A stretch of DNA of 62,899 bases, the filler included, from Octopus bimaculoides (taxonomy: Eukaryota), in the NCBI RefSeq assembly GCF_001194135.2. It is 8 parts of 7 records of this genome, joined end to end, with 100 filler letters (N's around TTAATTAATTAA, not from the genome) between each part and the next. Parts side by side here need not be neighbours in the genome. Positions count along the whole stretch, not along the records: positions 1 to 9,267 come from NC_068983.1; positions 9,368 to 32,740 come from NC_068990.1; positions 32,841 to 35,884 come from NW_026320403.1; positions 35,985 to 43,102 come from NC_068988.1; positions 43,203 to 57,284 come from NC_068983.1; positions 57,385 to 59,249 come from NW_026330101.1; positions 59,350 to 60,836 come from NC_068985.1; 1 more part is not named here. The stretch is one strand, 5' to 3'. Of this stretch, positions 914 to 59,505 are shown in pieces; position 1 is the stretch's first letter; each line of letters starts with the position of its first letter. A program made the position numbers and the translations under genes. The notes under the pieces were generated by a model, which worked only from the letters and a program-made list of their open reading frames with translations, made no database searches and was not told the DNA's origin.

Positions 914-948
914 CTTTGACGTTTCGAGCTACGCTCTTCAACTGAAAG
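914..948 (-). ncRNA. Degenerate minimal type I hammerhead-like motif in a short PLE-type terminal unit
   Basis: Minus strand reads CUUU-CAGUUGA-A-GAGC(GUA)GCUC-GAAA-C-GUC|AAAG. Stems I and II pair perfectly. Stem III is the loopless palindrome ACGU. The core deviates from CUGANGA at two positions. Confidence 0.5.
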
Positions 949-2434
949 GAATACAGAAAGAAATAAGGAGAGACACAAGGAGAAAAAATATAAATGTAGT
1001 GGTCAGCGATCTATCATGGCGAATGCCAGACGGAAGGTTCACACAGGAGAGCTAAGAAAAAGGGGATATATGTATGTATATATGTATATATAAAAGTGTA
1101 TAAAATTCGGGTAATATTATGTGTGATGACGTAAGATAGTAGTTGCATAAAATTGTTGCTCACGTCGACTTTCTGCCGAAATTCCAACTTGAGTCACAAC
1201 TAAAAACGTAAGGATGTTATAGCTCAACTGAGCAGGTACATGTATGATAGAATAAACTGATAAACAAGTAATCAATTGGTATCCGGTTAGATTCTGCCAT
1301 TTATATATTTAAACATGGGGTTTGAATTGATACCGGAGTACAGCTCGCAGCAGCTCGATAAAAGATCAGTTGAAGAACGATCATAAGGGTTATGGTATAT
1401 GCTAGTATTCTCCCGGAACAGTTATACGGTAAGTCGATATTATTGGTGTAGGTAAAGCTTATCATCGTAGGTAGAATCCAAAGTTGGATGAGATGAAAGG
1501 AAGAAGGAAGAAAGGACGAATGCAAGCAGATATTTTCCTACAACCGTTTCAAGGGTGGATGTGCAGATGGTGCAATTTGCTTGTAAACGATCTGCAGCCG
1601 ACTTTATAGTTGCGATCTATTCCAGCATCAGCATACATACATACATGGATGTATATACACATACGTATATATATGATGATGTATGAACATATTTAAGATA
1701 TACGCTCATATACACACAAGCACATATATAATGATATATACGTACATGTATAAGTATATATATATATATATATATATATATATATATATATATGAAGACT
1801 CACAAGGCCCTATTTGTATTATTTCATCTTCACGATAGTCTTTAGCGATAGTCGTGAAATAATTACTTCCATGTGTTCTGAAGCAAATGCATTAATTTGT
1901 CTACTATAGTGATAACATGCTAGTCGTTCGTGTTCGTACAAGATTATTTCAGCGCCAAAGAGATATACAACTACACACACGGACATGATGAAACATTCAT
2001 ACGCCATTACACCATACGCTTATACATGCAGATAAATAAACATATATATAGTCTGACACGCTGAAGAACAGCTGTTTCAAGTAATTTTTACAGGGACGTG
2101 TATTATAATGATATCTATAAATACAAAATATATTGCTCTATACTATATACTTAAAAAAGATTTTACACGCACGCACGCACACAGACACAGACAGACACAC
2201 ACATACACAATTAAAATGACAAAGAAACAGGAAACTAAGCAAAGAAATTCATTAGGTTACAGCTGTTTCTGCTGCAGACGCAGTGCACTGAGAGCTGAGT
2301 GCTTGTTCATCACCATATTGATTCAGCTAAGGTAATTTAGTTCATTGCATAATTTCCTCTTCCTTTGTCATTTATAAATTTCATATTAAACCCTGTGCTC
2401 GGTTAATGTCTTATTCTGAAGCATATGTACATTG

Positions 2435-2750
2435 GTGGAGGCGCAATGGCCCAGTGGTTAGGGCAGCGGACGCGTGGTCGGGGGATCGCGGTTTCGATTC
2501 CCAGACCGGGCGTTGTGTGTGTTTATTGAGCGAAAACACTTAAAAGCTCCATGAGTTTCCGGCAGGGGGTGGTGACGACCCCTGTTGTACTCCTTCTCCC
2601 CAACTTTCTCTCACTCTTTCTTCCTGTTTCTTGAGTAACGCTGCGATGGACTGGCGTCCCGTCCTGCTGGGGGGAACACATACGCCATAGAAACCAGGAA
2701 ACCGGGGCCCATGTGCCTGGCTAGGCTTGAAAAAGGGCGCATAAACAAGT
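2435..2750 (+). mobile_element. tRNA-derived SINE, family B, tail type 1
   Basis: tRNA-like head with A-box (tggcccagtgg) and B-box (ggtttcgattccc). The head is shared with the copies at 3531-3921 and 40873-40911. The 3' part contains gctgcgatggactggcgtcccgtcc, resembling conserved central SINE domains. Confidence 0.85.
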
Positions 2751-2828
2751 AATAATATGTATATTGGGTTGTAAGACCAGGTTATTACTATCACTATATA
2801 TGTATGTTTGTGCATGTATATGTATATA

Positions 2829-2990
2829 TATGAGGAGGTGCCGACAAGTTCCTGGCTTTGGGTAAAAGAAAACACAGGCTCAGCTAATTTTAATTTTTTC
2901 AAATTCTTCCCCTCTAAGGTCCACACTCATTGCAATGGTCCTTCAGTTTTACGAAGGCCGGAGCCAGGAACTTTTCAGCATCCCCCCGTA
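2829..2990. mobile_element. Mariner-derived MITE
   Basis: TIRs tatgaggaggtgccgacaagttcctggct / agccaggaacttttcagcatccccccgta with TA at both ends. The interior matches the 46629-46848 copy in reverse orientation. Confidence 0.85.
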
Positions 2991-55960: not shown

Positions 55961-58309
55961 GAAGGTATACAGAAAGCTCTTGTTTTACAACACACAGAGA
56001 AGTATCATCTTCTTCCTTGTCATTCTCTTGATAAATTCAACAGGGGAGGAGATACTAGCTTTTGTGATGCATCATACCCTCTCTCTCTTTTCTTTTCTTT
56101 TCTTTTTTTTTTTTTTTTTGAGCTGGATCAAGTTTAGTCACTCCTTTCTTCCATAACATTAGTAAATGATGATAAAATTTTACTGTTGCCATTTTTGGCA
56201 AGTGTTATTTTTACTTAATATTGCTCTTTGTGTCCGACTCAGCACACGTAACTAAATTTACTGTATGTATGATTAATAAGCATAGGTGTTTGTTTGTTAT
56301 CATTAATACTACCACTACTGTGGCAAGCATTCCTTCCTGCCAGTTCTGAATCAACCGTTTTGCAATGTATGAATTTTGAAAATGTGTGACAGTTTTAAAA
56401 CGTCTGAGAATAGAACTTTTCTATTCCCCAGTTACAGGAAATTCACTTGAGTCATTTGGTGGTAAATCAAACAAACAAACAAACAAACAAAAAATCCTTA
56501 CATTCTCATCAATTAATCTTGAAGATCTTTTGCATGAATTTCTTTGAAAACATGATCATTTGCACTATACAACAACAACAGTAACAACAACAATAATAAT
56601 TTGTTGTTTCACAATGTTGAATGCTTTGGCAAAGTGTTGCATACATTTTGTATCAACCTTAGTGATATGATATTGTGATAGTTTTTGTATTGTTTCATAG
56701 GCTTAGGTGAGAAACCTTGCTATTGTATCATTTTTGTTTCATGAATCTTTCACATTGACTCGGTGGTAGAGTATTGAACTGAATACATAACAGTATCAGA
56801 TTTGGTGCCTTACTGTTCTGAGTTCAATCCTTGCCAAAGCCTAACAAATTAATTTTCTCATACCTCTGCAATTGAATGTTACAAAAAAAAAAGAATAATA
56901 AAATAAAAATGATAATAAATATATAAATAAAAATGAAAATAAAAAATAATATTAATAACAACAAAAAAAAACATTGTACATTTAGGAATATAGTAAAATA
57001 CTCAAGAATTAATATGCACTGTTACCTCAAGGTGAAGTCAACAAATATTTTAGCTAGACTAACAATTTTGGCAATTGTCTAGTATTTTCATGCCTCATTA
57101 TTGATTTTAGATCATATTTATCAAATTTTAGTTCTGCACTACCACACTTTGATATAAAACACTTTTTATCTCTCAAAAATCTCAAATTACGAGTTTACTG
57201 TAGTGTGTAACACAGTTTATATATTTGTAAGTGTGCAAATTGTATATATATATATATATGTATATATGTATGTATATATATATANNNNNNNNNNNNNNNN
57301 NNNNNNNNNNNNNNNNNNNNNNNNNNNNTTAATTAATTAANNNNNNNNNNNNNNNNNNNNNNNNNNNNNNNNNNNNNNNNNNNNCAGGCGGCACTATAAG
57401 AATAATTATTAATGTTAAATACTATGGCTTTTCTTCTGAGCCAGACTAGGTATGTGGTGCGTGACGCTTAGTTTTGCAAAAGGGTTGTGCTCTCAACATT
57501 CTGCCCCAGCGTCTGTTATATTTAAAATACATTCCGAAATATCGTTCTATTCTTTCGATGCCGTTTCATGAATCAACAACTAGCTCACTCTTTCTGAATC
57601 AACAGCTAATTATTCAAATGTGATTAAGTCAATGAATCTAGAATTCCTCCATTTATTTCAGTATCTAGTAGCCAAGGCCGCATGTAATTCATTTCATTTC
57701 AATTTCAGCCAGCCCCTCACATTGCTTATGTGATAAATTTAATGATTAAAATGTACATGTATATTAATTTAGTATTAATATTTTAATAAGAATAACAATT
57801 ATTGTTACTACAGCTTTTCTTCCAAACCCGACTAGCTATGTGATGTGTAAAGCTTAGTTTTGCAAAAGAGCTGTGCTCCCAACATCCATTTTGCACACCC
57901 ATTATGCCCACCCACTGCCCTTCCACACCACCATCATTTTAATTTGTACATTAAATTTTCACGTGGCAACTCATACATTTCATGTGCTGTGTATATGAAA
58001 ACATATTTTGAGTATATCATTATACCCACTCCTGATGAGTGTTGTATATAGTTAAAGGTATCTCATATCTGAATATTTAGACATATAATACTGCCCTATG
58101 TAACCACCCTATACTCATACCTACTTGATAGATTTTGCCCTAGATGTTGGACAAGGTGGGGGGAAACTGTGATTCATTATAATTCACTGAATAAAGTCTG
58201 TATCAAAGCTGTATGCCAACTGGCAAGCATTTTCACAGATCTTCATTTCAGGTGATGATAAAATTTCTATAACTACCTTACTACCATCACTCCCAAGTAC
58301 TCAATCTCA

Positions 58310-59220
58310 GGTCTGCTACCATTAATATTGGCACAATGAAAGGAAGGAGCAGGAAGATTGTTGAAATGTTAGAGCAATGCCATGTTATGTGTGTGGTGTA
58401 CAAGAAGCAAGATGGAGGGGAGCCTCAGCTAGATTCCTCACAGGTAAGAGACAGAGATTCAAATTCCTTTGGGTTGGCAGGAATGATGGAATGGGAGGAG
58501 TAGGTATACTGTTAGCAGAAAAGTAGGTAGATAAGGTAACTGAGGTAGTCAGAGTATGTGATAGGGTAATTAAGATGAGACTTATCATAGGTAAATTAAC
58601 AGTTACATTTATCTTCTCTTATGTTCCTCAGTCTTTGCTGACTGATGAGCAGAAGGACCAATTCTATGAGATCCTTTTGCAGACCACCTCAACGACAAAT
58701 GACAGAGACTTTGTTATTGTGGCTGGTGACATCAATGGACATGTTGGATAGCACACCCATGGATTCCAGGGAGTGCATGGGGGCTATGGTTTTGGACCTA
58801 GAAATGAGGAGGGAACAAGACTGCTGGAGTTCTGCAATGCAAATGATCTAATGATCCGCAACACTAACTTCAAAAAACCAGCCAGCCACTTAAGCACTTA
58901 TCAGTTTGATGAGCACATAAGCCAGATTGTCTACATCCTCACCAATGAGGTAGAAAGATGCTTAAAAGTGCAAAGTCTTTCACAGGTGAAGAGTGTACAA
59001 CCCAACATAGGTTACTAGTTAGTGACTTCAGAAGTAGAGCTAGAAAAACTCAGAGAAATAACCCAATTAGGAAAAGAAGACTATGGAAGCTCAAAGACTC
59101 AGCAAACAGACAAAAATTTAGACATTTATTTATGGAAGCTTCTGACGAACGAGAGGAAGAGTTGGGGATATATAACATAGAGGACAATTGGAAGAACCTG
59201 TGGGACAATCTACTGAGGGC
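58310..59220 (+). mobile_element. RTE-clade LINE apurinic endonuclease region (pseudogene)
   Basis: ATINIGTMKGRS, QEARW, GVGILL, VIVAGDINGHVG and GYGFGPRNEEGTRLLEFCNANDLMIRNTNFKK are typical RTE APE motifs. Frameshifts are present. Confidence 0.9.
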
Positions 59221-59465
59221 TAAATATATATATATATATATATATATATNNNNNNNNNNNNNNNNNNNNNNNNNNNNNNNNNNNNNNNNNNNNTTAATTA
59301 ATTAANNNNNNNNNNNNNNNNNNNNNNNNNNNNNNNNNNNNNNNNNNNNGTATATATATATATGTATATATATATGTATATGTATATATACATATGTATA
59401 TATATATATATATGTATATATATATATATGTATATATATATATATATGTATATATTTCTAACAAA

Positions 59466-59505
59466 ACTGTCCGATGAACGGGAACGTGAAACTCAGAGTA
59501 ACGGT
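59466..59505 (+). ncRNA. Type I hammerhead ribozyme variant with CCGAUGA core (U4C)
   Basis: ACUGU-CCGAUGA-ACG(GGAA)CGU-GAAA-CU(CAG)AG-UA|ACGGU. All three stems pair. The motif sits in a ~150-bp unit (59456-59607) flanked on both sides by (TA)n. Confidence 0.65.

Follow-up and report, generated by a model that had tools for sequence, protein, structure and literature searches.

Hammerhead motifs with palindromic stem III in Octopus bimaculoides DNA: probable 3′ ends of several Penelope-like element families, with comparative support for a dimer requirement

Minimal type I hammerhead ribozymes of Penelope-like elements (PLEs) carry a palindromic stem III, for which a dimer (double-hammerhead) model has been published (PMC4209133; PMC3088659, legend of Fig. 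S8). Families of one species differ in palindrome (CGCG and GGCC in Aedes; PMC4209133, Fig. S3), and hammerhead counts are ∼2,000–9,000 in several genomes (PMC4209133) and 126,247 in axolotl (PMC7229834). An octopus family of the Hydra clade, Hydra-1_oBim, is also on record (Craig et al., 2021; PMC8557442), so that published work already covers the palindromes, the dimer model, the occurrence of several families in one genome and a Hydra family from octopus. Here we analyse a 62,899-nt stretch of Octopus bimaculoides DNA (the window, assembly GCF_001194135.2), in which seven hammerhead motifs are found. Taken as a whole, our explanation is very likely to hold: the motifs would be what survives of the 3′ ends of PLE families, which are several, mutually unrelated and mostly dead, and of which at least two probably belong to the Hydra clade. 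Comparison with related elements bears on two ideas about stem III, of which a dimer requirement gains support and a family-specific code loses it.

The window is AT-rich and microsatellite-rich, with 6,409 N bases and 56,490 non-N bases. It was searched with a type I descriptor demanding an exact CUGANGA...GAAA...UH core and stems I and II of 3 bp or more, and four full-core sites were obtained (25431(−), 29700(−), 32622(+) and 33260(−)), against a mean of 0.23 and a maximum of 2 in 40 local dinucleotide shuffles. None of the 40 shuffles reached the observed motif count at any of six descriptor settings. Stem III is palindromic at each of the four, a feature that the descriptor did not ask for. 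The original prediction had listed eight hammerhead-like motifs as a dense set and had named a frequency equal to that of shuffled sequence as one finding that would speak against it; the density (seven motifs per 56,490 non-N bases, four with full cores) is far above chance, and all eight quoted stem III sequences were found near the positions given for them. Seven of the eight motifs stand, four with complete cores and three with one or two substitutions, and the eighth, 2258(−), falls away, lacking C3-U4 and a closed stem II. Stems I and II are in register, with stem I open-ended, in six of the eight (stem II of 33260 being weakly closed; the exceptions are 13591 and 2258). Stem III is palindromic in all seven accepted motifs, in agreement with the claim that it is nearly always self-complementary, and masked self-BLAST and pairwise flank alignments show that the flanks of the motifs are unrelated to one another. 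In the six motifs where a monomer stem III hairpin could be drawn, its predicted energy was positive (+1.1 to +5.4 kcal/mol). Of 154 Rfam matches (E up to 1), 150 were listed, and these included no hammerhead family, only microsatellite-driven microRNA and small nucleolar RNA matches; minimal PLE motifs presumably escape the Rfam models.

The best-preserved motif (29625..29700, minus strand) combines a full core with a 5-bp stem I, a long stem II and the stem III ACAUAUGU. The remaining full-core type I hammerheads lie at 25400..25431 (−), with U10.1-U11.1 closure, stem III AGCGCU, a 3-bp stem I and (TA)n 25 nt on; at 32622..32661 (+), with a 7-bp stem II, an extra G ahead of GAAA, stem III ACAGCUGU and (TA)n 70 nt on; and at 33153..33260 (−), with a stem II region of ∼90 nt with weak closing pairs, the same U10.1-U11.1 closure as at 25431, stem III ACACGUGU and (TA)n 142 nt on. 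A degenerate AT-rich direct repeat (33568–33698 and 34034–34173, 72%) lies upstream of the 33260 motif. Among the lesioned motifs, the type I hammerhead at 59471..59500 (+) has U4C, an 8-bp stem I and stem III ACUCAGAGU, the stem III of five related Hydra-type families. The decayed type I motif at 13591..13661 (+) has G8A, stem III ACAUGU, a 7-bp stem II and stem I out of register, with (TA)n 52 nt on, and that at 918..944 (−) is a minimal type I motif (C3 to H17) with stem III ACGU, 4-bp stems I and II, U4A and A6U.

In all seven motifs a (TA)4+ run lies 25–142 nt downstream of the cleavage site; the background median for this distance is 562 nt. In a test devised after the pattern had been noticed, this proximity had P ∼1e-5 for all seven and ∼1e-3 for the four strict sites, and it survived a stricter TA definition. 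Upstream-side TA distances (53–1668 nt) gave no comparable pattern. In related Hydra-type loci, a TA run follows 32–113 nt past the cleavage site (17 loci with a TA run in reach).

Coding remnants of PLEs were found next to two motifs. A broken Hydra-clade reverse transcriptase (RT) fragment (11881..12270, minus strand; hmmsearch iE 2e-27, tblastn 5e-17) is inverted relative to a broken Hydra-clade fragment of thumb, CxCx5C linker and GIY-YIG endonuclease (12726..13293, plus strand; frameshifts, stops), with another repeat between the two, and the 13591 motif lies ∼300 nt 3′ of the endonuclease remnant. This arrangement is that of a PLE insertion whose 5′ part became inverted. A second remnant, an open frame of 317 codons (31606..32559, minus strand), comprises a Hydra-clade PLE thumb and GIY-YIG endonuclease with no RT core; aligned with 19 relatives it shows CxxC before E and CxH after N, and an Asn-rich stretch replaces the cysteines of the CxCx5C linker that is present in the remnant at 12726..13293. 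The 32622(+) hammerhead is antisense at the 5′ end of this frame, a placement that the inverted-5′-part geometry of the remnant at 11881–13293 may explain. A full HMMER search with the 31606–32559 frame, the best preserved of the remnants, returned 2,697 relatives; word-index homology searches returned no matches, and two of the six short top protein matches looked up are Octopus sinensis proteins. Full-length relatives carry the motifs RWK, DKT and YRDD, a CxCx5C linker and, around the E and N of the endonuclease, CxxC/CxH, which are the marks described for the Hydra clade (PMC8557442). The Hydra assignment rests on these motifs and on the profile, because Pfam matched none of three window peptides and found neither RT nor GIY-YIG in ten full-length relatives, and a PDB sequence search using the alignment gave no match. 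No complete element, with two hammerheads around a full RT–endonuclease (RT-EN) open reading frame (ORF), is present within the window. Elsewhere, 20756–20824(−) weakly matches (E 0.004) the C-terminal end of a Hydra-type endonuclease, one of the proteins tried, and no hammerhead was seen downstream of it.

Related elements were examined in a metagenome scan of mixed samples, from which the best 79 Hydra-type loci of 426 stretches were taken. A linked sense hammerhead is present in 60 of the 79, lying 66–525 nt 3′ of the ORF match in 49 and in the 5′ repeat only in 11, and 39 of the 52 loci with enough 3′ flank have a 3′ hammerhead. Loci such as L001, L019, L028 and L042 carry hammerhead copies on both sides of a full RT-EN ORF. 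Clustering at 90% protein identity grouped the 60 hammerhead loci into 50 families, and the pattern counts leave out L020 and L030 (ACAGUUCUGU) as well as the 5′ copy of L046. The U10.1-U11.1 closure seen in the window recurs in 29 of the 50. Of the 33 families with 9-nt stems, 29 have a Watson-Crick innermost pair (11 expected), a pair that would enclose a loop of 1 nt, and all four pair types are represented; of the 15 families with 10-nt stems, 13 and 11 have Watson-Crick pairs at the two inner positions (7.8 and 6.0 expected). The significance of this excess is inflated by shared descent. As far as comparison can show, stem III self-complementarity is selected beyond monomer need. Since inner pairs that no monomer can close are kept Watson-Crick, with compensatory changes over the 50 families, the published double-hammerhead model is supported. 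Two Hydra-type elements (L008 2400 and L024 1769) have the U3-A8 core covariant described in Schistosoma PLEs.

The 918..944 motif is part of a very high-copy, putatively PLE-type repeat (the 944 family), with a repeat body at 822..1064 (−) and a (TA)n end 97 nt beyond the cleavage site. Two further copies, at 598..648 (+; 80% over 54 nt) and 9150..9182 (+; 86% over 37 nt, ending in (CA)n/(TA)n), are 3′ tail fragments from which the hammerhead is absent. Four of 24 listed sequencing runs, two of DNA (X2, X14) and two of RNA, were aligned to 822–1620 at 80% likeness; the RNA runs are fragmented libraries, ∼6% of each of which was read, for the 944 family only. Run X2 gave 11,740 contig pieces concentrated on 822–1064, with a summed depth of 3–4 million over 849–929 against ∼35 on the unique flank, and as depth is no copy number we take from it no more than that copies are very numerous. 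X14, from a second organism, yielded 4,179 pieces, and the two RNA runs yielded 4,483 and 3,901 reads, divided equally between the strands. The share of depth with U4 restored is 52% in X2, 85% in X14 and 86–90% in RNA. In each of the four runs the loose-end consensus past 929 has U at position 6 (from 108 and 65 contigs and from 413 and 393 reads, with agreement of 0.74–0.87), a reading that may be biased, the reference copy itself being U6. The family core is mostly CUGU(U/G)GA, with U at position 7 in the DNA majority and G in the RNA majority, which suggests a transcribed subfamily. The related substitution A6C is known to reduce hammerhead activity in Mg2+ (PMC3088659, PMC7151607). A literature search for hammerhead A6U returned only a paper on the twister ribozyme and none on hammerheads, A6U is absent from PMC7151607, and the U6 motif pattern was matched by no prokaryote genome or viral contig. 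Because position 4 varies, U6 more likely marks a fossil core. If the family proved inactive, a highly successful PLE-type tail would need no cleavage, which bears on what PLE hammerheads do.

In the explanation that we favour, a complete element would contain the hammerhead twice, once per terminal repeat, as in the related loci. In line with the published model, the palindromic stem III would let the two identical copies of a single transcript pair with each other, and the double hammerhead so formed would cut after position 17. The RT and GIY-YIG endonuclease of the element would insert copies into (TA)n, and insertions would usually be 5′-truncated, sometimes with an inverted 5′ part, so leaving solo hammerhead tails. 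The palindrome would simply be the requirement for pairing of two identical copies; it would be inherited with the family and drift by compensatory change, with distant families converging on the same few sequences. Solo copies would have no cis partner and would likely be mostly silent. Several points weigh against this account. Coding sequence adjoins two of the seven motifs, the five others having no coding remnant nearby, and the tie of 32622(+) to the antisense endonuclease frame comes from geometry, no second copy of its flank having been found 3′ of the endonuclease ORF. The 6- and 8-nt palindromes of the window are rarer in the related set, where stems are mostly of 9–10 nt, so some window motifs may belong to other PLE clades. 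Finally, the cleaved ends that the original prediction had proposed to look for in RNA did not appear: at the 944-family cleavage site (917/918) the two fragmented RNA libraries show no pile-up of read starts or ends, and reads run through.

As had been suggested from their lack of coding capacity, the units could also be retrozyme-like and mobilised in trans, in which case they would be non-autonomous, depend on PLE proteins and spread as small RNA circles. The extreme abundance and transcription of the 944 family, to which no ORF is tied, would fit this, as would the derivation of retrozymes from PLE terminal repeats and their inclusion of solo monomers (bioRxiv 10.64898/2026.07.22.740005). 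However, masked self-BLAST and flank alignments revealed no tandem hammerhead repeat in the window, whose 6,409 N bases could hide repeats, and the two hammerhead-less 944-family copies are tails of the kind that 5′ truncation predicts. Circular junctions likewise failed to appear, with no back-joint at the 944 cleavage site among the joints listed. Since PLE coding remnants stand beside two motifs, truncation accounts for the missing coding capacity, and the retrozyme-like proposal is unlikely.

A lower standing still is held by the proposal that selection has made the palindromes into a family-specific code, one that restricts dimer cleavage to encounters in trans between RNAs of the same family. 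The constancy within families that it expects was indeed measured among the related loci, where 11 of the 12 pairs with protein identity of ≥90% have the same stem III. In the window, moreover, all seven palindromes differ and are predicted to be orthogonal, heterodimers being 4.0–17.3 kcal/mol weaker than homodimers. They are, however, no more orthogonal than random palindromes: of 3000 random sets of the same lengths, 77% were all distinct, 48% matched the minimum gap and 64% the median gap. Across the 50 related families there are 29 distinct stem III sequences, and 33 families share theirs with another; even below 50% identity, 25 of 1,186 family pairs have identical stems. Among 9-nt stems, ignoring the unpaired centre, 70 of 528 pairs fall in the same class against 33 under uniform use. 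ACUCnGAGU occurs on several separate branches of a quick tree, L038/L050 and L068 have ACUCAGAGU in common at only 48% protein identity, and the terminal copies of a single element can differ in stem III (L007, L046). A cleaner test than mixed-sample metagenome loci is offered by a single genome, that of Hydra magnipapillata (File S2, PMC8557442), in which nine of 13 families share stem III, five of them carrying ACUUUAAGU, and in 49 of 78 family pairs the heterodimer is predicted to come within 1 kcal/mol of the weaker of the two homodimers (Penelope-9_HM was excluded for ambiguous letters, and Penelope-1_HM and -18_HMa, alike in their flanks, may represent a single motif). Palindromes are thus shared by unrelated families, which could cross-pair, so that the code idea loses support, and we regard it as quite improbable. 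The same low probability attaches to its version for the octopus, itself disfavoured, in which co-resident PLE families would have diverged their palindromes until pairing and cleavage in trans between solo hammerhead RNAs of dispersed copies stayed within each family (a code of self/non-self recognition among retroelement RNAs), the most abundant family running on an undescribed U6 core. In the open-access literature, bioRxiv supplements aside, we found no study of a family-specific palindrome code or heterodimer test, nor of octopus hammerheads.

A chance origin of the motifs, as matches arising in DNA rich in AT and in microsatellites, is refuted for the set by the shuffles, the oriented (TA)n proximity and the adjoining PLE remnants, even though relaxed descriptors give 0.5–2 false matches per window and the trimer GAA is not enriched over other trimers ahead of palindromes of ≥6 nt. 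It stands for 2258(−) (2255..2314, GAA-ACAGCUGU-A), which is probably a chance match. The pattern of GAA followed by a palindrome of ≥8 nt has six sites, four of them accepted motifs, and the remaining two (2266, 2075) compare with 1.7 expected in 150 shuffles, a chance level. These two, 2075(−) and 2266(−), carry the same GAA-ACAGCUGU ∼190 nt apart, with neither a 5′ core nor common flanks. Other candidates were rejected: 61397(−), 42190(+), 40291(−) and 40172(−) have CUGANGA...GAAA and failed the stem tests, and 9782(+), 32262(+), 46008(−), 45215(−), 3345(+) and 62826(+) matched at relaxed settings only, at about chance level. A further decayed hammerhead is possible by eye at 9741–9768(−), with a 6-bp stem II, stem III AUAU and apparent deletions in both core halves; it failed the descriptor.

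Other repeats occur in the window. One of ∼400 nt (12265–12676; copies at 4064–4364, 13902–14075, 38114–38403, 38788–39134, 41353–41767 and 49782–49829), a copy of which lies at the inversion point of the Hydra remnant, may be a tRNA-derived short interspersed element; ARAGORN found no tRNA in it. A second dispersed repeat forms an inverted pair (2435–2631 and 3726–3921, 90% identical). Frames at 17639–18088(−) and ∼58300–59245(+) resemble broken retroelements of the long interspersed type; two peptides tried had no Pfam match. The same 12-base palindromic word stands between paired 44-N runs at 9312–9323 and similar sites, a likely assembly or library artefact.

Among known systems, natural core variants include A6C and U4C (PMC3088659, PMC7151607). 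U4C is also found at 59471, and the 944 family has A6U instead, its prevalent U at core position 6 not having been met in the literature searched. Metazoan non-LTR retrozymes (PMC7229834; bioRxiv 10.64898/2026.07.22.740005) have the same type I hammerhead, are non-coding and are kin of PLE terminal repeats, but they consist of tandem 170–400 nt units expressed as circles, whereas the window motifs are solo and their flanks unrelated. With the minimal PLE hammerheads of Cervera and de la Pena (2014; PMC4209133) the window has in common that unrelated families are many within one genome and that most motifs stand alone, left by truncated PLEs, and also the extra base after A9, the palindromic stem III and the dimer model. 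Octopus is absent from two supplement files of that paper, and the U6 core from the rows of it examined. At four full cores per 56 kb, the density of this one selected window looks above the 2,000–9,000 per genome reported there. If the window were typical, the load scaled to ∼2 billion contig letters would be ∼10^5 motifs, an upper-leaning guess, as the window was picked for the feature; this possible load and the abundant family, mostly U6 and variable at position 4, are the two leads from the analysis.

The Hydra-clade PLE hammerheads (PMC8557442) have the same type I motif near the 3′ end, an AC...GU palindromic stem III and (TA)n targeting. From these the window differs in three 8-nt ACA-NN-UGU stems, two long stem II regions and three core lesions. 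The described octopus family, Hydra-1_oBim, was compared by motif alone, and its motif ACCAAUGGU is matched by none of the seven. In contrast, the ACUCAGAGU of 59471 equals the stem III of Penelope-3_HM, and Penelope-13_HM, an inverted 5′-truncated copy with an antisense motif, resembles the geometry seen in the window. The window motifs add octopus families to this described class.

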